From Octopus vulgaris (Eukaryota): a stretch of DNA of 64,000 nt. Of the stretch, positions 1 to 45,020 are shown piece after piece. Every line of letters starts with the position of its first letter. Position 1 is the stretch's first letter. The translations under genes were made by a program, and so were the position numbers. Under the pieces are notes generated by a model. The model had not been told where the DNA came from. It searched no databases and saw nothing but the letters and a program-made list of their open reading frames with translations. The stretch covers positions 28,024,001 to 28,088,000 of the forward strand of contig OX597829.1 of assembly GCA_951406725.2 (NCBI GenBank), in the 5' to 3' direction.

Positions 1-184
1 TGTGTATTTGTGTATGTGTGTGTGTGTGTGTTTGTGTGTATGTGTGTGTGTGTGCATGCATGTATTTGTTCTTCCCTCACCATTTGACAATACAGATTGA
101 TGTGTTTATGTCCCTGTAACTTAGCAGTTCAGCAAAAGAGACCAATAGAATAAGTACCAAACTTTAAAATAAGTACTGGGTTTA

Positions 185-547
185 ACAAGTGCATGATAAA
201 GAATGTGGCTTACAAATGTGAGGTGAAGGTGGATACACAGAAAGATGTGTACATTGGTGGTACCAGAGACCCATGTAAAATCATCTGCAGAGCCATCCTT
301 TTCCAATGTAAACAGAAGGCACTCCACATCACTATCTAACCTCATCTGGAAGCTCAAACAGAATGGAGTGAAGCATACAACTCACTGGTTTATTATAAAT
401 AAAATGCTGCACCATAAGATAAAACATTGAGAGTGTGCAACTTATGTCTAGAAGAAACCCTGGCGATCATCACATCCAGAAAAAACATAATTAATAGACA
501 CCCTGAAGTTATTATATCATGTAAGCATGAATGTAAGGCATTATTCC
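185..547 (+). pseudogene. Penelope-like element GIY-YIG endonuclease remnant (frameshifted)
   Basis: Manual translation across frameshifts: NKCMIKNVAYKCEV..DVYIGGT ... STSLSNLIWKLK..HWFII ... VCNLCLEETLAII..NIINRHPEVIISCKH, the C-terminal GIY-YIG pattern of PLEs. Confidence 0.75.
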
Positions 548-19974: not shown

Positions 19975-22190
19975 ATAGTTAACCAGGTGATACACAAAGG
20001 AGTCATTCCCAATGACTGGTGTAGCAGCATAATAGTCAGCTGCTACAAAGGTAAAGGTGACACCCTAGATACAAATAACTACAGGGGTATCAAGCTGCTG
20101 GATCAGGTAATGAAGGTTACGGAGAGGGTTATAGCCCAACTAATTAGAGAGAGAGTTAGCCTAGATCAGATGCAGTTTGGGTTCGTGCCAGGGAAAAGTA
20201 CTACTGATGCTATTTTCATGGTAAGACAGCTGCAGGAGAAATACCTAGCCAAAGACAAGCCCCTATACCTGGCTTTTGTTGATATGGAGAAAGCCTTCGA
20301 CAGGGTCCCCCGATCCCTCATCTGGTGGTCAATGAGGAAACTAGGGATAGATGAATGGTTAGTGAAAGCTGTACGAGCCATGTACAGAGACGCTGCTAGT
20401 AAGGTGAGGGTTGGCATCGAGTACAGTGAAGAATTCAGGGTAGAGGTTGGGGTCTACCAAGGTTCAGTCCTCAGTCCCCTCCTATTTATCATAGTCCTCC
20501 AGGCAATAACGGAGGAATTCAAGACAGGATGCCCCTGGGAGCTCCTCTATGCTGATGACCTTGCTCTAATTGCTGACTCTCTATCAGAACTAGAGGAGAA
20601 GTTTCAGGTATGGAAGCAAGGTTTAGAATTGAAGGGCCATAGAATCAACCTAGCCAAAACCAAAGTCCTAATAAGTAGGAAGGTAGACCAATCACAAACG
20701 CCTTCAGGTAGATGGCCCTGCTCGATCTGTAGAAAAGGTGTAGGTAGAAACTCTATAAGATGCACCAAGTGTAAGCTATGGACACATAAGAGGTGCAGCA
20801 ATGTCAAAGGAAGGCTAACTAGGAAGATGGTTTTTGTATGTGGCAGATGCTCAGGAACAATAAACACTGAAAATGCTCTGAGACCAACTTCCGTCACTTT
20901 CCAGGGAGAAAAACTAGAAGTAGTTGATAGTTTCCGTTACCTAGGTGACCAAGTCAGTAGCGGGGGTGGGTGTGCTGAAAGTATAACTGCTAGAGTAAGA
21001 ATAGCCTGGGCAAAGTTTAGAGAGCTCTTACCCCTGCTGGTGACAAAAGGCCTCTTGCAGACTGTATGATGCATGTGTACGTACAGCCATGCTACATGGT
21101 AGTGAATCTTGGGCTGTGACTGCTGAGGATTTGCGTAAGCTCGCAAGAAATGAAGCTAGTATGCTCCGATGGATGTGTAACATCAGTGTTCATAATCGAC
21201 AGAGTGTAAGTACCTTGAGAGAAAAGTTGAACCTAAGAAGCATCAGTTGTTGTGTGCAAGAGAGACGTTTGTGCTGGTATGGTCATGTGATGAGAATGGC
21301 TGAAGATAGTTGTGTACGAAAGTGCCACACCCTGGCAGTTGAGGGGACCTGTGGAAGAGGTAGACCCAGGAAAACCTGGGTCGAGGTGGTGAAGCACGAC
21401 CTTCGAACTTTAGGTCTCACCAAGGAAATGACCAGTGACTGAGACCTTTGGAAGTATGCTGTGCGTGAGAAAACCCGGCAAGACCAGTGAGAACAGTCAA
21501 AATCAAAATCAAACCAAATATCAGAAAGCAGAACCAAATTGAGGTCGATCAACATCAGGGCCCCCGTGCAGGTGACACGTAAAAGCACCATCCGTTTGTG
21601 GCCGTTTGCCAGCCCTGTCTGGCCCCCGTGTCGGTGGCACGTAAAAGCACCATCCGTTCATGTTCGTTGCCAGCCTGGCCTGGCCCCCGTGCCGGTGACA
21701 CGTAAAAGCACCATCCGTTCGTGGCCGTTTGCCAGCTCTGTCTGGCCCCCATGCCGGTGACACGTAAAAGCACCATCCGTTCTTGGCCGTTTGCCAGCTC
21801 TGTCTGGCCCCCGTGCCGGTGACACGTAAAAGCACCATCCGTTCGTGGCTGTTTGCCAGCCCTGTCTGGCCCCCGTGTCGGTGGCATGTAAAAGCACCAT
21901 CCGTTCGTGTCCGTTGCCAGCCTCGCCTGGCCCCCGTGCCGGTGACATGTAAAAGCACCATCCGTTTGTGGCCGTTTGCCAGCTCTGTCTGGCACCTATG
22001 CGGGTGGCACGTAAAAAGCACCCACTACACTCACGGAGTGGTTGGCGTTAGGAAGGGCATCCAGCCGTAGAAACACTGCCAGATCTGACTGGGCCTGATG
22101 AAGCCTTCCAGCTTCACAGACCCCAGTTGAACCGTCCAACCCATGCTAGCATGGAGAACAGACGCTAAATGATGATGATGATGATGATGA
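19975..22190 (+). mobile_element. 5'-truncated RTE-clade LINE (RT, PHD-like insert, repeat-containing 3' UTR, (GAT)n tail)
   Basis: ORF 19987-21069: NNYRGIKLL, QFGFVPGKSTTDAIF, AFVDMEKAFD, GVYQGSVLSPLLF, LLYADD, FRYLG. A frameshift near 21055 continues as RLYDACVRTAMLHGSESWA..GRGRPRKTW. Confidence 0.95.
21559..22025 (+). repeat. Tandem array of seven 61-62 bp units plus a partial unit in the RTE 3' UTR
   Basis: Unit GGCCCCCGTGCCGGTGACACGTAAAAGCACCATCCGTTCGTGGCCGTTTGCCAGCTCTGTCT starting at 21559, 21621, 21682, 21744, 21806, 21868 and 21929. Confidence 0.95.
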
Positions 22191-26081: not shown

Positions 26082-28179
26082 TAAATGTGAACGTCCAAAG
26101 GCTATTAGTCAGGGAATTCAAATTCCCATGCCTAACAGCATGTTGCATTCTTGAGCAAAACATTTCATTTTGTATTCCTCTGCAGTCACACACCATGCAC
26201 TGGTACAGGCAATGTCGATTTGATGGAGGGCATGAACTAATGTACCACACAAACATTTGATCACTATAAACAAATCATTTGTGTAGATTGTTTAGCAAAA
26301 AGTTGCAGAAACCTCATGTCATTTAAGACCAGAGAGTCTACCTATATATATATAAAAAGCACCATCCAAGCGTGGTTGATGCCAGTGCTGGCTGACTGGT
26401 CCTGTGCTGGTGGCATGTGAAAAGCACCATTTGAGCGTGGTTGTTGCCAGTGCCGCCTGACTGACTCCCATGCCGGTGGCATGTAAACAGCACCATTCAA
26501 GTATGGTTGATGCTAGCATCGCTTGACTGGCCCTTGTACCAGTAGCATGTAAAAAGCACCCACTACACTCTCAGAGTGGTTGGCATTAGGAAGGGCATCC
26601 AGCTTTAGAAACTTTACCAGATTGGATTGGAGCCTGCTGCAGCCTTCTGACGTGCCAGCCCTCAGTCAAACCATCCAACCCATGCCAGCATGGAAAGTGG
26701 ACGTTAAACAACAATGATGAAGATGATGATGATGTATCTGTTGCTTGTGTTAGTTATTGGACAGTGGCCAGGCTGGGACACCACCTTTAAAGGTTTAGAA
26801 CAAATTGCTCCAGTACTATTTATTTTGGAAATCTGGTACTTATTCTACACACACACTCTGTCTCTCTCACACACACTTGTAATATTTGATATACATGCAC
26901 ACATACATACATGCAGATATGTATGTGTCTGTGTAGGCAATTAATAGGCACAGATCCAGCATTCTGGATATTGTATACTTCTGTTTTAATGAGAACTACA
27001 CATGTCTGGCAATATGATCTTTGTTGGGACAGTGCCAAGTTTCCTGTAGGTCAGGTATTCTTCCAGCCTTGTCCATCTTATCTGTTTCATCCTCATATAT
27101 AGAGAATTTATGCCCACATCCCTTCTCAATATATTTGTTCCAAATTCCAGACAGTATGGATTGATTTGAAAGAAATTTAGCTGTTGTTATTTTGTGAGAG
27201 GGTCATGTAATCAATGAGAAGTTCAATGATTGGGTTTCTGCTGCAGTGGTCTAAATGTAACGGATTCATAGGAATGGTTGACATGAATTCTGTGGATTTT
27301 TATTTGCCATGAGTTTGGTACAAGCAAATTGCATGAGCTAGTCTTTTGTTGCTGCATGGCTGTGTTGATAATATATTTGATATAGATGAAGAAGACAGAA
27401 CACAAATCATAACACCACCTCGTGAAATTGTTTGCTATGTCTGCTTTGAATTGTATCATATGTGCTAACCTCTATACCGAAATGATGTCATAACTCTTGA
27501 CCACTTAACTTGGTAGTAGATTTAAGTTAAGTTGCCACAAAGACATACTACTGATCTGTCAGTTGGGATCTTAGTTCACACAGAATTCCTGGTATATTGT
27601 TGTCAATCATTGTCATCATCATCATCATCATCATCATTTAGCCTTCATTTTTCCATGCTTGCATGGATCAGATGGAATTTAGGGAGGCAGATTTTCTTAC
27701 AGTTGGAAGCCTTTTCTGGTGCCAACTCTCACCTGTTTCTAGGCAAGGCAATGTTTCCCATGGCCAGACTGGCATGTCAGTGGAGCTCATTTACAACCAA
27801 CATGTGATGTATAGACAAGGGTACACACATAGACACAGACAGACAGACACATGCACACACACACAGAGTGGATTTCTCTTCAGCTTTTGTTAAACAAATC
27901 CACCTGCAAGGCCCTAGTCAGCCAGGAGCCACAGCAGAAGACACTTGCTCAAGGTGCCATATATTATATAATACTAACCGGACGTGTGAAAATTCCATAG
28001 TGTAAGTATGCATAATGAGAAACACTATGTTAATATATTAAACATAAGCAAGGAATTTCAAAAAATTCTTTTGAAATCCTACCATTTAATCAAAACCATA
28101 CATTTAAATATAATTGAAATGAACATATTAAAAGAAAGTAAGTAAGCATTGCCTTCCAAGTATTGCTTATGTACCATCT

Positions 28180-30899: not shown

Positions 30900-31150
30900 A
30901 CATTTGATGGATATTTGTCCTCAAATTGTTTGTTAACACAATGTTTCGGCTGATATACCCTCCAGCCTTCATCAGGTGTATTGGCAAAATTTCGAACCTG
31001 GGTTCTCATTCCTAAGGTATTTTTCAATGTAGTTATTATTATTATTATTCAGGCCACTGCCTGGAATCGAACTTGGAATCTTGGGGTTAGTAGCCTGCAC
31101 TCTTAACCACTACACCATAACATGCCTGTGGGCATATGGCGTAGTGGTTC
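30900..31150 (-). mobile_element. tRNA-head / (AAT)n / hammerhead short element
   Basis: Minus strand: TGGTGTAGTGG (A box)..AGTTCGATTCC (B box)..(AAT)n..ACAC-CTGATGA-AGGCTG..CAGCC-GAAA-CATT-GTGT; inverted partial head at 31131-31149. Confidence 0.8.
30936..30979 (-). ncRNA. Minimal type I hammerhead ribozyme
   Basis: Stem I ACAC/GTGT, core CTGATGA, stem II GGCTG/CAGCC, GAAAC(A/G)TT; the three copies imply an ancestral GAAACGTT. Confidence 0.7.
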
Positions 31151-32763: not shown

Positions 32764-32785
32764 TATTATTATTATTATTATTATA

Positions 32786-34207
32786 ACTAGGAATCCATTA
32801 ACTAGGTATGATACAACACACAAAGGAAAAATAAAATAAATAAAGAATACTATAGACGAGTTAGATCAATACTAAAAACAGAGGTCAATGCTAAAAACAA
32901 GATAATAGGTATTAACACTTTAGCCGTCCCAGTTATAAGTTACAGCTACAATATCCTTAACTGGACGCTAAATGAACTAACCAAAATAGATAGGAAAACA
33001 AGAAAAATAATGACAGGATCTAGGATGCATCACCCAAAATCTGACATAGAAAGGCTATATATACAACGTATAGAAGGTGGTAGAGGCCTTATACAGCTGG
33101 AAAACTATTATGAAATAATCACCATAGGACTACAAAATATCTACTTCAGAAGCAAGGAAAACTGACACAAATAGCGGCAAAACACGAGCAAAAAAAAAGG
33201 AAGCTGACAAATACAAACAAGAAATCATAACACCTAACAAATATGAAGAAGAAGAAGAAGAAGAAGAAGAAGAAGAAGAAGAAGAAGAAGAAGAAGAAGA
33301 AGAAGAAGAAACAACAAAAGCTATAAAACAAATGAAATCCAAACTAAAACTAGAACAGCAACGGACCATGATAAAACGATGGCAAGAAAAGCCCCTTCAT
33401 GGCAAATACTGCACTAAACTAAACGCAAAAGAAATAGACAAAGAAAAATCCCAGCAATGGTTGAGAAGCTCAGGACTCAAAGCAGAGACGGAGAGATTTT
33501 TAATTGCAGTACAAGACCAAAGCCTCCCCACCAGAAATTACCAAAAACATATAATGAAAAGAAACATAACAAGTAACTGCAGAATATGTGGAGATGGACA
33601 AGAAACAATAAATCATATTATCTCTGGCTGCCCAGTCCTGGCTAACAAGGAATATATTCACAGACACGACAGAGTTGGGACCTACATACACTGGAAGCTA
33701 TGCCAACAGAAAAAGGATGGTATAAGCACACACCAGAAAAGGTTACAGAAAACGAGAAAGCAACCATCCTCTGGGATTTGCCAATACACACAGATAAAGA
33801 AATTAAGACCAATAGGCCAGATATAGTTGTTAGAGATCATGAAGAAAAAAATGTTTTCTAATTGATGTATCAATACCAGCAGACGACAACGTTTCTCTAA
33901 AAGAAATGGAGAAACTATCAAAATACAAAGATCTGGAAATAGAGGTAACTCGAATGTGGAATCTATAAACAGAAACAATCCCTATCATAGTGGGTGCATT
34001 AGGTATGATAAAAAAATATTCAGACAAATACATAACGAAAACACCAGGACTTACAAACACATATAACATACAGAAAATTGCACTACTGGACACTGCACAC
34101 AAACTACGCAAAACATTTCAATAGAGTAACCATCAGAGCATCACATCAAATCACAGCACATACCCAAGGCACACAGAGCTGCGCTCGGTAGTGAAGTGAA
34201 AGCACTA

Positions 34208-39296: not shown

Positions 39297-40207
39297 GTAC
39301 AATTTTTACATTTGACGGATATTTGTCCTCATCTTGGTTGTTGTTAACACAACATTTCGGCTGATATACCCTCAAGCCTTTATCAGGTGTCTTGGGGAAA
39401 TTTTGAACCTGGGTTCCCATTCCTAAGGTATTTTTCGATGTTGTTGTTGTTGTTATTATTATTATTATTTTTTCTTCTTCTTTCAAATTTGCTTCCATTT
39501 CTTGCCGAGCGTCTTCCCGACTCCCAGGGCAAAGAAACTCATAGTATACATTGGTAGGCCATTAAACCAAACTCAATAGTTCGTTCATTTAAAAAATTTT
39601 TTTTTTAGGGTTAAATTAAAATCAAATAGGGCCTACTGTCTTGATTCCGTGTTCTCCATATACTGTAAGAGTTTGCGGTGTGTCTCTCTTGAGATGGCCT
39701 ACCTAATGCATAGTAATAAGCGTATATTACTTCTTTATACTCTTCTCGGGTCCATTTGTTCCGCTTACATTTTTCTTTCTGTGGTGGTTGTGGTGGTGAA
39801 CTTGGAGGGCTCGAGTTGGGGAATTTCCCGTTCAAGTGACCATCCATGTCCGTATTCGGAGAAGAGTTTGTGCCAGTTGATGACTTTTCGATCCCAGGCT
39901 GGCTCTTCCCTGGGGGACGCGCTTCCAGATTAACCATAGGACAAGCGATTTGGTATACTGATTTGGTTTTCCTTTTAGTTTCCAAAAACATTTTGGTGCT
40001 ACGATAATATTATCATTTTTGAGCTTTGATTGGCTCGTGGGGAGACGGCCATCTTGCCGTTACAATTATAATCGTTGCCGTTACAATTATAATCGTAATT
40101 ATTATTATTATTATCATTATTATTGTTATTATTCAGGTCACTGCCTGGAATTGAACTCGGAATCTTGGGGTTAGTAGTCTGCGCTCTTAACCACTACGCC
40201 ATATGCC
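39297..40207 (-). mobile_element. tRNA-head / (AAT)n / hammerhead element, left arm, interrupted by a Dong derivative
   Basis: Head 40132-40207 (TGGCGTAGTGG, GAGTTCAATTCC); tail 39297-39440 with a decayed HHR at 39347-39390. Confidence 0.8.
39470..40095 (-). mobile_element. Internally deleted Dong/R4-type element (5' end fused to 3' end)
   Basis: ORF 39611-39991 contains RNKWTREEYKEVIYAYY..IWRTRN, resembling R4/Dong N-termini. The 3' end TTGCCCTGGG..CTCGGCAAG parallels TTGCCCTAGG..CCCGGCAGG at 43505-43540. (AAT)n flanks. Confidence 0.6.
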
Positions 40208-40272
40208 GGAATCTGGGGATTAGTAGCCCGTGCTGTTAACCCCAATATTCCAAGTTGAATTCCAGGCAGTGA

Positions 40273-40341
<69 letters not shown>

Positions 40342-40396
40342 TAACAATGATAACAATAATAATAATAATAATGATAACAACAATAATAATAATAAT

Positions 40397-43300
40397 ATGA
40401 ATATTAAGCCGAGAAAAGCTAGAAAAATCAAGCAAAAATATAAAATCAAAGATCTCATAAACCTCCCTGCAACTAAGGAACTGTTGAAACAACGGATACA
40501 GTTGAAAGCTCAACGGCTTAGAAGGTATGACAAAAGAAACAAATTTTATCGACAAAATAAATTTTTTAAGACAGATGCAAAGAAATTTTATAGGGAAATT
40601 GGCAAAAATAAAATACACATAGAAGATCCACCTAAGATTGAAGAAGTGGAGGAGTTCTGGAAGAAGGTATGGAGCAACGAAAAAGAGTTTAATGCTGAGG
40701 CTGACTGGATAGAACGTGAGAAAGAGAGACTGGATGAACTTGAAGAACAGAAATGGGAAACAATAGGAATAGAGGAGCTAAGGTGTGTCCTTAGGAAGGC
40801 TCATAAATGGAAAACCCCAGGACTGGATCGGATCCCTAACTTCTGGCTGAATTGTTTGACAGAGGTACACGAACATCTCGCTGCATCTCTGTCTGATGTC
40901 ATTCAGAACCCAGAGCAAATACCTGCTTGGCTGACTGAAGGAACCACCTACCTATTACCTAAAACCGAAGACACAAAAAACCCAAAGAATTACCGGCCAA
41001 TAACATGTCTCAACACCACCTACAAAATCCTCACATCCACAATAACGGAGAGAATGTACGCTTTCCTTGAACAAAATTCTATCCTTCCACAAGCTCAAAA
41101 AGGTTGTAAAAGAAACTCTTATGGGTGCAAAGACCAATTGCTCATAAACAGAATGATTGTAGAGAATTGCCGGAGCAAAAACAAAAACCTGAGTATGGCA
41201 TGGATAGACTACAGGAAAGCGTATGACAGTGTCCCGCATAAATGGATACTCAAGGCCCTTGAGATATACAAGATCTCTCCTGTCGTCTCAAAATTCTTAG
41301 AGAATAGCATGACCATGTGGAACACACGTCTCTTTCTAAGCCATAGTAATGGGATGAGCCAGTCCAACAGCATCAACATCAAACGAGGCATCTTTCAAGG
41401 TGACTCCCTCTCTCCATTACTTTTTTGCATGGTACTGATCCCACTCTCAAACGAATTGGATAGTACCAGATATGGGTACAAAGTTTTTAGTAAGTTAATA
41501 AACCATCTTTTCTATATGGACGACCTAAAGCTGTTTGCCAGGAATGACCAAGAGCTAGAAGGGCTGCTAACAACTGTTAAAGAGTTTAGCAATGATATCG
41601 GAATGGATTTTGGCCTTGATAAGTGTGCTAAAGCAACTTTTGTAAGAGGCAAGCTCAGGCAAACAGCTTCTGTTAAATTAGATATTGACACTACCATCAA
41701 GGAACTTGACCCACAGGAAAGTTACAAATACCTAGGAATCAACGAAGGAGATGGTATACATCATGCTACTATGAAGGAAAAAATAAGAAAGGAATACTAT
41801 AGGAGAATAAGGCTTGTACTGAAGACTGAACTCAACTCCAAAAATTGCATTGAGGCCATTAACACCCTGGCACTTCCAGTAGTCCAGTACAGTTTTAATA
41901 TAATTAACTGGAACCTTACGGAACTCCAACGCTTAGACAGGAAGACAAGAAAGTTACTGACATCCAAGAGCATGCACCACCCTAAGCAACTTTTGTAAGA
42001 GGCAAGCTCAGGCAAACAGCTTCTGTTAAATTAGATATTGACACTACCATCAAGGAACTTGACCCACAGGAAAGTTACAAATACCTAGGAATCAACGAAG
42101 GAGATGGTATACATCATGCTACTATGAAGGAAAAAATAAGAAAGGAATACTATAGGAGAATAAGGCTTGTACTGAAGACTGAACTCAACTCCAAAAATTG
42201 CATTGAGGCCATTAACACCCTGGCACTTCCAGTAGTCCAGTACAGTTTTAATATAATTAACTGGAACCTTACGGAACTCCAACGCTTAGACAGGAAGACA
42301 AGAAAGTTACTGACATCCAAGAGCATGCACCACCCTAAGGCAGATGTAGACCGCTTGTACCTACCTAGAAGCAGCGGGGGAGAGGAATGATGCAATTAGA
42401 GCTGTGCTATAAGACCTCTACTGTAGGAATGAACAGGTACCTATCTAGTACAAAGGACTGGATGCTGCGACTTGTGTGCGAACACGAAAGCAACAAAAAG
42501 CTGCATTCTATTGTCAAGGAAGCTTATAAGTTCGAAAGGGAACTAGACATTAACCTTGAATCAGATGAAGAGCCGGAAACCACTGCTACCAAGCAAGCAA
42601 AGCGAATCAAGCAGACTGCAAAAAAGAACGGGCAGAATCAAATTGAGAGGCGGTGGAGCCAGAAGCCCCTGCATGGACAATATATTCTCCGAAGCCAAAA
42701 TGCTGATGTAGACCAAGCAACAACCCATCAGTGGCTGAAGAGCTCTGGATTGAAAGCAGAGACTGAAGGTTTCATAATGGCAGCACAAGATCAAAGCTTG
42801 TTTACCAGAAATTACCAGGCTAACGTTCTCCGAAACGGTACTGACCCTAAATGCAGATTCTGCGACACATTTGACGAAACGATAGACCATCTCGTTTCGG
42901 GATGTCCTGTGCTGACACCAAACGAATACAAAAATCGCCACGATAGGGTAGGACAGTATATACATTGGAAGATATGTAAACACTACAAATCCGACACTCC
43001 TGCTAACTGGTATGAACACCATCCTCAGCCAGTTGTTGAAGGTAAAGATGTCACCATCCTCTGGGATTTTCCAGTCAACACTGACAGAACGATCAAGGCT
43101 AATCGACCAGACATAATTGTTAAAGACAGGGAAGAAAATACCTGCAGACTAATAGAAGTAAGCGTCCCCACTGATAAAAATGTATCTGTCAAGGAATTTG
43201 ACAAACTTAGTAAATATAAGGACCTGGAAATCGAAATACAGAGGATGTGGAATCTTAAAACAAAAACTGTTCCTGTTATTGTAGGTGCCCTAGGTATGAT

Positions 43301-43575
43301 AAAAAAGGGATGTCAGAAACACCTAGACAATATCCCTGGAAAACCATGTCTCAAGGAAATCCAAAAGATTGTGCTAACAAGTACTGCCCACATCCTTAGA
43401 AAAACCCTATCAATGTAAATGTCTGTGTTTGCATTACATGGAGATATATCTCTACTTCCCCTCCCCAAGCTTTCAGCTATATTTCAACAACTCTTAACCT
43501 TCACTTGCCCTAGGGCGCTGGGTGTGTCCCGGCAGGTGATTGCATCAAACATGCAGATTAAAAGTAAATGACAAT
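40397..43575 (+). mobile_element. Dong/R4-clade non-LTR retrotransposon (RT, CCHC, RLE), 5'-truncated, young
   Basis: NYRPITCL, WIDYRKAYDSV, GIFQGDSLSPLLF, FYMDD, YKYLG, CRFC..ETIDHLVSGC, RHDRV, RPDII..IEVSVP..KLSKYKDL; broken only by a 353-bp duplication and a G-run frameshift near 42375; flanked by (AAT)n. Confidence 0.95.
41631..42339 (+). repeat. 353-bp direct tandem duplication inside the Dong ORF
   Basis: 41631-41986 recurs at 41984-42339 with AAG microhomology; no differences seen by eye. Confidence 0.93.
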
Positions 43576-43591
43576 GATAATAATAATATTA

Positions 43592-43640
<49 letters not shown>

Positions 43641-43642
<2 letters not shown>

Positions 43643-43822
43643 ACAACATCGAAAAATACCTTAGTAATGAGAACCCAGGTTCGAAATTTCCCCAAGACAC
43701 CTGATAAAGGCTGGAGGGTATATCAGTCAAAACATTGTGTTAACAACAAACAAGATGAGGACAAATATCCGTCAAATGTAAATAATGTACATAATTCCTC
43801 ATCTCTTACATATAGAACTGTA
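43641..43822 (+). mobile_element. Tail of the tRNA-head/hammerhead element, right arm (head at ~40236-40277)
   Basis: CATCGAAAAATACCTTAG..ACAC-CTGATAA-AGGCTG..CAGTC-AAAA-CATT-GTGT, homologous to 30900-31030 and 39297-39440. Confidence 0.8.
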
Positions 43823-43958: not shown

Positions 43959-45020
43959 GGCAAGACTTCCGCCCGTCCCCCGCAAAAAAACCACCCTTTA
44001 GAAAAAAAATTTGTCTTCGCCCCCCTATCGCCCCCTCCCCCTCTCCCCCCTCCCCCTCTCCCCCTCTCCCCCCAAAATTGGCAAAAATCGATATTTCTAA
44101 ATTACCACCCCCACCCTTATTTCCTTCATTTGAAACTTTTTTTCACAACTTTTAATATGCGGGAAAATACGGAGATTATGATTCTGAAAACAATTTCCGA
44201 AAATCCGTGTAAAATTTTTTTTTAACAATTTTTTTTTTCTAAAAATGCTGAAAAATACGGACATCATGATTAGGACAAAAATTTCAAAACATTTCTGGGA
44301 TCTTTTCGGTTTGAACGGCAGTTTTTAACATAATTTCTAGGTAACTAAGAATTTTTAAACTTTGTATACTGGTAGAATGTGTTTATAAAACATCTTTTCC
44401 TCTTGGCTTTATTGAGAAAATTCTATAATTTGTAAGATATTTGTTGTTTTTTTCTTCAATTTCTGCAATTTCAACCAATCAGTAACGTCTATTGAGTTAA
44501 AAAGCATTCTGTGCCGTATGAATATGTCCCTCGTTTAAGAAACAGATTGGGTTTATTTACATTTGTGAAGAAAAAAGATACCCTTCCCCCCACCCCTAAC
44601 CCTAACCCTAAAATAGATTGAAATGCAATAGATCGATACTAGGGTCATAATTATGGGTGACAATTTCATATGACACCGCTAGAAAAAACTGCCGTTCAAA
44701 CCGAAAAGATCCCATTTCTGTACTTACGGTTAGGGTTTTAGGGTTAGGGTTAGAGTTAAGGTTTTAGGGTTAGGGTTTTAGGGTTAAGGTTTTAGGGTTA
44801 GTGTTTTAGGGTTAGTGTTTTAGGGTTAGTGTTTTAGGGTCAGTGTTGGGGAAAAAGTCAAAATTTAAGTTGGGGGGAGGGGGCGGGAATATCACAGTGC
44901 CAATTTTTGGCAATTTTCTGGAACCTCCATATACGAAAACGAGGATTTTGGGCAAAAAAAAAAAAATTACAAAAATAAACAGATTTGGGAGGAAATGGGG
45001 GGGGGGGCGGAAGTCTTTCC
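43959..45020. mobile_element. GG-terminal TIR element carrying telomere-like repeats
   Basis: TIRs GGCAAGACTTCCGCCC / GGGCGGAAGTCTTTCC; TTAGGG/TTTTAGGG array at 44728-44840; no clear TSD. Confidence 0.6.
44298..44712. mobile_element. Merlin-like MITE
   Basis: 29-bp TIRs GGATCTTTTCGGTTTGAACGGCAGTTTTT; 8-bp TSD CATTTCTG at 44290-44297 and 44713-44720; GG termini with an 8-bp TSD fit Merlin. Confidence 0.8.

Follow-up and report, generated by a model that had tools for sequence, protein, structure and literature searches.

The window, a 64,000-nt stretch of the Octopus vulgaris genome (assembly GCA_951406725.2, contig OX597829.1, positions 28,024,001 to 28,088,000 of the forward strand), contains two insertions of one repeat family. 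The first, at 30900..31127 on the minus strand, is classed as a solo pseudo-LTR of a Penelope-like element (PLE) in its SINE-like form, 91% identical to the family majority sequence and ending near element position +228 (+n coordinates start at the head's first G in the 271-nt majority sequence of the family, which was built from 30 loci). In this copy a tRNA-like head (31050..31127; A box 31117-31107, B box 31072-31063) is followed by an (AAT)n tract (31032..31049), the length of which differs from copy to copy, and then by the start of a PLE reading frame, which opens at an ATG (31007..31009, element +116) and contains a putative minimal type I hammerhead motif (30936..30979) with a predicted cut between 30940 and 30939, all on the minus strand. 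The distance of 45 nt from A box to B box corresponds to tRNA-type spacing. The A box, B box, (AAT)n and hammerhead-shaped tail of the original prediction are therefore all present on the minus strand at 30900-31149, a stretch that also includes a short inverted copy of the head (31130..31149, plus strand), forming a fold-back centred on a GCCC-AC-GGGC palindrome at the head's 5' end.

Three copies had been counted in the window; three sequences do exist, but they represent only two insertions, with 39298-40207 and 40237-43822 forming the left and right arms of a single one. The left arm comprises head and (AAT)n at 40117..40207 (minus) and a tail at 39298..39460 (minus) with a short 3' end (+238), whilst the right arm has a 5'-truncated head at the junction (40237-40296, plus) and a tail at 43628..43822 (plus) with a long 3' end (+271). 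The head-to-head junction spans 40207..40296 and includes an inverted head piece (40207-40241, minus), so that inverted head segments occur at both loci, as had been proposed. The CTGATGA core ascribed to the copies holds for the one at 30.9 kb, but a change at G8 has turned it into CTGATAA in the other two, and the 43.7-kb copy is mutated at G12 as well.

Each arm of the second insertion (39298-43822) is interrupted at its (AAT)n tract by LINE sequence. That in the right arm (40397..43575, plus) is an unrelated, 5'-truncated LINE of ~3.2 kb lying outside the element proper, with a reverse transcriptase (RT) match (PF00078, E 5e-31) and, by eye, CCHC and restriction-like endonuclease motifs; its motifs lead us to label it Dong/R4-like. 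A 353-bp perfect tandem duplication (41631-42339) breaks its ORF frame, and the 100% identity suggests either a very recent event or an assembly artefact. The left-arm piece (39480..40050, minus, boundaries approximate), which gave no Pfam match, is probably the 5' part of a Dong/R4-like LINE, a label based on an N-terminal motif. TAA repeats are described as the target of Dong elements (PMC3812793). A second and more diverged Dong/R4-like LINE remnant, 65% identical to the LINE at 40397-43575, lies at 32783-34015 (plus) beside (TAA)n and (GAA)n arrays.

No PLE ORF was found within the 64-kb window. Other features included an LTR-type integrase zinc-binding fragment (PF17921, 32167-32592, minus), a decayed LINE RT fragment of another family (PF00078, 36282-36839, minus, with neighbouring frames to ~37924) and a degenerate (TTAGGG)n-like array of interstitial telomere type (44724-44840), ~900 nt from the right arm. 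GC-rich tandem units at 21559-22022 (62/123 bp) and 26353-26560 (66 bp), which have a short motif in common, are probably internal repeats of another SINE.

A tRNA-like head and a putative hammerhead motif

In the family majority sequence the A box (+8) and B box (+53) are both intact and correctly spaced. Among the tRNAs present in 30 sampled loci, in which some isotypes were unsampled, the closest to the head was tRNA-Arg (46-49 of 74 letters alike), with a weak margin over Cys, Ala and Thr in the head alignment. Rfam returned no tRNA for the window among the 150 of 153 matches listed, nor in a good copy, and ARAGORN found no tRNA in the window; the head, as far as its letters tell, is therefore tRNA-like rather than a tRNA. 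Linkage of head and tail was genome-wide, with 79 of 102 solo heads accompanied by a near-full tail within 450 nt and the best 40 scored genome matches spanning nearly the whole head-tail query. The proposed CpG decay of the palindrome was likewise borne out, the CG site reading CG in 99, CA in 44 and TG in 40 of 207 gap-free copies.

The hammerhead motif consists of a 4-bp stem I, CUGAUGA, one unpaired base, a 5-bp stem II, GAAA and a palindromic stem III remnant, which is CpG-decayed in the 30.9-kb copy. Compared by eye, it agrees at every letter with the metazoan minimal hammerhead (min-HHR) consensus given in the PMC4209133 supplement, following the pattern CUGANGA-H, G-C closed stem II, GAAA-N-palindrome-UH and stem I, and its core letters are intact in 98 of 215 copies spanning the motif. 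As Rfam reported no hammerhead among the 150 of 153 window matches listed or in a good copy, the hammerhead call rests on this consensus match. The miRNA matches in Rfam correspond to microsatellites or the inverted pair.

Stem covariation was not detected (0-3 double changes per stem I/II pair, at noise level) in copies that derive from near-identical masters by neutral decay, from which little covariation is expected. Nor did 5' ends accumulate significantly at the predicted cut (6 of 99, P = 0.41); a 5'-end step seen post hoc (6 ends in +157..185, 14 in +186..200) was not pre-specified and was set aside. Of 435 pairs of variants compared, the most strongly linked one (P = 8e-8) has its sole change within the hammerhead at N7, the free core position, which as a single event may be a mild sign of hammerhead constraint. 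Related min-HHRs show no activity as monomers and little as dimers (PMC4209133), and the hammerhead of the Anolis element PAc depends on protein for cleavage, which in vitro insertion does not require (PMC11167929). The idea that cleavage frees a translatable RNA (compare PMC13725137) was rejected because the frame opens at +116, upstream of the predicted cut, which would remove the start codon.

Identity as a PLE pseudo-LTR

The original prediction of a separate non-autonomous lineage with a borrowed tail did not survive. As judged from sequence comparison, the same genome harbours an autonomous PLE, with RT and GIY-YIG-type endonuclease, of which the short repeat is the pseudo-LTR. The whole unit, from the A/B-box head and (AAT)n through the ATG at +116 and the in-frame minimal hammerhead to the 3' ends at ~+244 and ~+271, forms this pseudo-LTR, and its tail is continuous with the PLE ORF. 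A degenerate PLE RT-motif pattern matched 115 places in the genome (control, 0), and in 16 of the 30 loci examined around such motifs a head lies ~1,000 nt downstream on the same strand, the rest being rearranged or without a head. In long copies the pseudo-LTR starts ~30 nt past the ORF stop codon, and a head follows the ORF in nearly all copies extending that far. At the opposite end, a 17-mer from the 5' part of the ORF occurs at 116 genome places, and 31 of the 38 such loci examined are preceded at a fixed distance by the +271 element end. The frame of the conserved N-terminus is open in the majority sequence back through the link, tail and hammerhead to the ATG at +116, so the tail constitutes the first ~155 nt of the PLE reading frame. 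With the frame open from +116, head and (AAT)n stand in the place of a promoter and 5' UTR, and the tail itself is coding. An alternative start, an ATG 35 nt past the element, was rejected as out of frame with the conserved N-terminus.

A single ORF carries DKG, MGSPLSP and YVDD, which we take to be RT motifs of the PLE type, named in part after PMC8557442; a natural piece of it matches RVT_1, and the Atlas neighbours of this piece carry PF26215/PF00078. The C-terminal piece has no direct Pfam match and aligns (E 1e-8) with the PF01541-scoring stretch of the metagenome PLE L244, which points indirectly to a C-terminal GIY-YIG endonuclease. No Cys-rich linker, such as the Zn-finger linker of Neptune/Nematis, was seen by eye in the ORF. 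The majority ORF retains two frame breaks, and no intact copy was seen. Metagenome contigs L241-L248, used as controls, carry PLE ORFs themselves, that of L244 being open over 827 codons with both RT and GIY-YIG domains.

Insertion structure

The 3' ends of the family group at +231-250 and at +266-271. A long end is joined with a short one in 50 of the 60 inverted pairs, the others being short-short (eight), long-long (one) or of another kind (one); 29 long-short pairs would be expected among the 59 classed if ends were independent (P = 1.5e-8; a few loci give two pairs). Direct repeats of 9-15 nt, with one mismatch allowed, flank 39 of 55 inverted loci, compared to a mean of 3.6 and a maximum of 9 in 20 shuffled pairings. 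The family thereby displays the PLE hallmarks of pseudo-LTRs, inverted 5'-truncated copies and a 30-40-nt tail at one end, the last being known from PLEs (PMC8557442). For one PLE, two internal RT start sites, a hammerhead within the ORF and cutting of both target strands are described (PMC11167929), and the pairing of one long with one short arm fits priming of two nicked strands at two sites. The 50 of 60 natural junction pairs also lend genomic support to two-site internal priming, observed in vitro in one PLE (PMC11167929). The two 3' ends, head-to-head arms and target duplications uphold the earlier proposal of mobilisation by PLE machinery, and both PLE origin and PLE-type integration hold under our preferred reading and the two rivals discussed below.

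SINE traits lacking in the sampled loci are a LINE partner, its place being taken by a PLE, and a simple-repeat tail, the 3' ends lying at two fixed non-repeat sites. Retrozyme-like head-to-tail arrays were not found either, sampled loci being single or head-to-head with occasional partial tandems. Five loci (L270, L271, L272, L274 and L277) pass the ORF-5' motif by 20-90 nt and then jump back into the element, representing either partial tandems or priming further inside the ORF. One head-to-head junction (L010:1450-1548) scores in Rfam as a miRNA-like hairpin, and such pairs could give false miRNA calls.

Copy number and 5' ends

Exact 20-mers were counted genome-wide 6,882 times for the tail and 5,148 times for the head (reversed controls, 0), compared to 843 times at -32..-13 and 749 times at ~-140 upstream of the head. 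With no match of the reversed controls, the head and tail counts are not a product of chance. Copy number declines by 25% from tail to head (120 nt), by 84% from head to spacer (60 nt) and by 11% over the next 110 nt, a sixfold fall just 5' of the head. Forty 10-kb stretches chosen by round coordinates contained five loci, four of them inverted pairs, which extrapolates to ~35,000 loci in the genome (Poisson range roughly 11,000-80,000). The ORF-linked share was 16% by 20-mer ratio versus 4% in the sampled loci. Between 67 and 92% of element words were present in 20 sequencing runs (11 studies, 5 organisms; presence only). Four runs, consisting of contigs, showed no starts, ends or circles and so weigh neither for nor against expression.

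In a sample of 126 head segments, weighted to one contig and to exact-match copies and with one locus (two segments) counted twice, 5' ends fell at +18..31 (n = 8), +6..17 (n = 30), -7..+5 (n = 67), -20..-8 (n = 15, some of these calls being partly an artefact of the resemblance between inverted head and spacer), -33..-21 (n = 1) and further (n = 5). Among the 88 segments reaching +5, 67 end between -7 and +5, a rate of ~0.06 per nt; the truncation rate of ORF-linked copies is 0.0026 per nt (30 loci). The head is where the majority of copies start. Pol III is expected to start 7-12 nt before the A box. The 5'-end step also coincides with a predicted hairpin across the spacer-head junction (-13.4 kcal/mol), where many inversions are centred. 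That the step sits at the expected Pol III start but also at the fold-back palindrome is the main ambiguity of this analysis.

Absence of TTTT

TTTT is the Pol III terminator. The 2,610-nt majority unit contains no T4 run, with 13 T3, 8 C4, 0 G4 and 30 A4 runs, and the T4 runs expected in 821 joined codons numbered 2.9 under codon shuffling (P = 0.025) and 4.9 under resynonymisation (P = 0.004). An earlier, shorter version of the unit gave P = 0.009-0.016 by mononucleotide and P = 0.07-0.10 by dinucleotide shuffle, and for the absence of G4 in the unit P was 0.05-0.28. Natural ORF pieces totalling 62 kb carry 17 T4, 24 G4 and 155 C4 runs. Eight metagenome PLE ORFs, which are T-richer (26% vs 21%) and probably related to one another, contain 50 T4 runs in 9.8 kb, and the ORF of the R4-like LINE in the window contains 10 in 2.7 kb. 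By pattern, neither a B box nor a hammerhead was found in the eight metagenome ORFs. The TTTT deficit is modest, and suggestively points to Pol III transcription.

Proposed transcription and copying of the element

The head is likely an RNA polymerase III promoter, and its action as such would lead to short SINE-like copies far outnumbering long ones. Indirect evidence speaks well for a Pol III start there. Our preferred reading, to which we assign a probability of roughly 0.55, is that Pol III starts at the head of the upstream pseudo-LTR and that internal priming at either repeat gives rise to short or long copies. Initiation would occur at about -5 to +1 in the upstream pseudo-LTR, no TTTT being met in the unit, and the PLE protein would nick both target strands and prime at two internal RNA sites, ~+244 and ~+271. 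Copying that is primed in the upstream repeat and runs back to the RNA 5' end would yield the ~270-nt form, and priming in the downstream repeat the ORF-bearing copies, mostly truncated. Two cDNAs would then join head to head, often via fold-back at the palindrome, and intact solo copies may likewise give transcripts that are mobilised in trans. Hammerhead cleavage would need a dimer or the help of protein; with its predicted cut 70 nt inside the ORF, it is probably unneeded for making most copies.

Tentatively, and at somewhat short of even odds, the reading may be extended to an autonomous coding PLE transcribed end to end by Pol III from a tRNA-derived promoter, with its 270-nt SINE-like copies born in cis. 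Against a full-length Pol III RNA stands the observation that the whole head is clear in only one of the 18 ORF-5' copies with an upstream repeat, with one or two more possible that are cut by the edge of the examined sequence. For twelve of the 18 the start lies at +178..247, and the tail alone accounts for seven of these. Translation of an uncapped Pol III RNA is a further difficulty, which this model leaves unexplained.

Alternatively, the element could be an ordinary PLE with a passenger tRNA-derived head, transcribed by Pol II read-through, its short copies being 5'-truncations or fold-backs at the junction hairpin. The palindrome and extended hairpin lie exactly at the 5'-end step, and an inverted segment precedes 67 of 102 head rows, a count to which one pair may contribute both its arms; in addition, PLEs are heavily truncated and mostly single pseudo-LTR remnants (PMC4209133), and the internal promoter of Penelope is LINE-like and TATA-less (PMC2377424). 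However, the head is also the starting point of most of the 31 rows with neither inversion nor ORF, the tail stem and hammerhead hairpins produce no comparable step, the majority sequence preserves the A and B boxes at proper spacing, and the missing TTTT is left unexplained. We consider this alternative unlikely.

Less likely still is an independent Pol III SINE that took up the priming region and hammerhead of a PLE and moved in trans, with the ORF-linked form a Pol II-transcribed SINE-PLE fusion and Pol III making short RNAs only. Solo copies exceed ORF-linked ones 6-25 fold and have all the requirements of a SINE, with no TTTT inside, and SINE-like repeats of schistosomes pair a Pol III promoter with a hammerhead (PMC6765202). 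Yet solo-specific diagnostic changes are lacking: the majority letter was identical at every position between 39 ORF-linked and 102 solo heads and between 22 and 79 tails, respectively. Five positions differ in frequency at P < 0.01 between solo and ORF-linked copies with the majority unchanged, and the linked variant pair, a subfamily variant, occurs in both classes. This suggests, in a small sample, that solo and ORF-linked copies are one lineage. The lower divergence of solo heads (5.9% vs 8.1%) was discarded as an artefact of locus selection by an exact head 20-mer. A fusion is further opposed by the head after the ORF in nearly all copies reaching there, by the open tail frame continuous with the ORF and by the lack of TTTT in the ORF itself.

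Implications

SINEs are Pol III RNAs copied by LINE enzymes. If our preferred reading is true, a tRNA-headed unit made by PLE enzymes would extend the SINE partnership to a third retroelement class, and one route of SINE origin would be the promoter end of an autonomous element. Should the 2.5-kb ORF be read by Pol III, it would offer a natural test of a Pol III RNA as mRNA. Repeat annotations would call the copies 'SINE' and miss the link to the PLE. More speculatively, thousands of 250-bp inverted pairs could form dsRNA in host transcripts, which may bear on RNA editing in cephalopods.

Comparison with known systems

Neither a tRNA-headed PLE nor this element was reported in the literature searched, the sequences of Repbase, Dfam and SINEBase lying outside that search. 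Already known are min-HHRs in pseudo-LTRs and solo pseudo-LTR remnants (PMC4209133) and PLE-related retrozymes (PMC7229834). Cephalopod Penelope elements, SINEs or hammerhead counts have been reported without a link between them in the available text (PMC8967140, PMC6962438), and an octopus repeat annotation of 2026 contains 893 SINE families that are recently active and unclassified, the word ribozyme being absent from its available text (PMC13282606).

Penelope, Poseidon (PMC4209133) and Anolis PAc (PMC11167929) resemble the octopus element in having RT and C-terminal endonuclease in one ORF, a pseudo-LTR spanning the ORF start and a minimal type I hammerhead, located partly or wholly in coding sequence, with an unpaired base before stem II and a palindromic stem III, as well as inverted upstream copies and two 3' ends ~27-35 nt apart. 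The order of parts is the same as in PAc, in which hammerhead and ORF start overlap and reverse transcription begins within the ORF (PMC11167929). Unlike these PLEs, as far as their available descriptions go, the octopus element has an A/B-box head and (AAT)n at the 5' UTR, a sixfold copy step and no TTTT; the available text of PMC4209133 and PMC11167929 makes no mention of a tRNA-like head.

Non-LTR retrozymes (PMC7229834; bioRxiv 10.64898/2026.07.22.740005) and Chlamys MRC1 (PMC8557442) are likewise short, non-coding and related to PLE pseudo-LTRs, and retrozymes and non-autonomous Chlamys elements such as MRC1 are thought to be moved by PLE enzymes (PMC7229834, PMC8557442). They differ in forming head-to-tail tandem arrays, with circular RNA in retrozymes; 'tRNA' does not occur in the available text of bioRxiv 10.64898/2026.07.22.740005, nor 'Pol III' in that of PMC7229834. 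The Schistosoma repeats SM-alpha and Sj-alpha place a Pol III-type promoter before a hammerhead in one short repeat, as here, yet occur as tandem units cut from multimeric RNA and have no autonomous partner named in the available text (PMC6765202), whereas the octopus unit, dispersed and head-to-head with target duplications, has a minimal hammerhead and itself belongs to a protein-coding PLE.

With tRNA-derived SINEs the short form has in common a tRNA-like head, a length of ~270 nt, tens of thousands of copies and a 3' part that is its partner's. It departs from them in that the partner is a PLE and not a LINE, the 3' end has no simple-repeat tail and copies often form inverted pairs. The octopus SINEs OK, OR1 and OR2, reportedly described by Ohshima and Okada in 1994, are said to be partly tRNA-Arg-derived. 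OR2 is listed as a CORE SINE (PMC4758252). Set beside OK, OR1 and OR2 by description only, the short form may already have a SINE entry that lacks the PLE connection; at 271 nt and with a tRNA-like head and promoter boxes, it falls within the SINE definition of PMC3531059 (<700 bp; tRNA, 7SL or 5S head with promoter boxes). Finally, in Helenus and Ajax, too, the terminal repeat of a retroelement other than a SINE contains a tRNA- or 5S-like stretch, but these are described as non-autonomous LTR elements (PMC10886601), in contrast to the PLE of autonomous type to which the octopus pseudo-LTR belongs.
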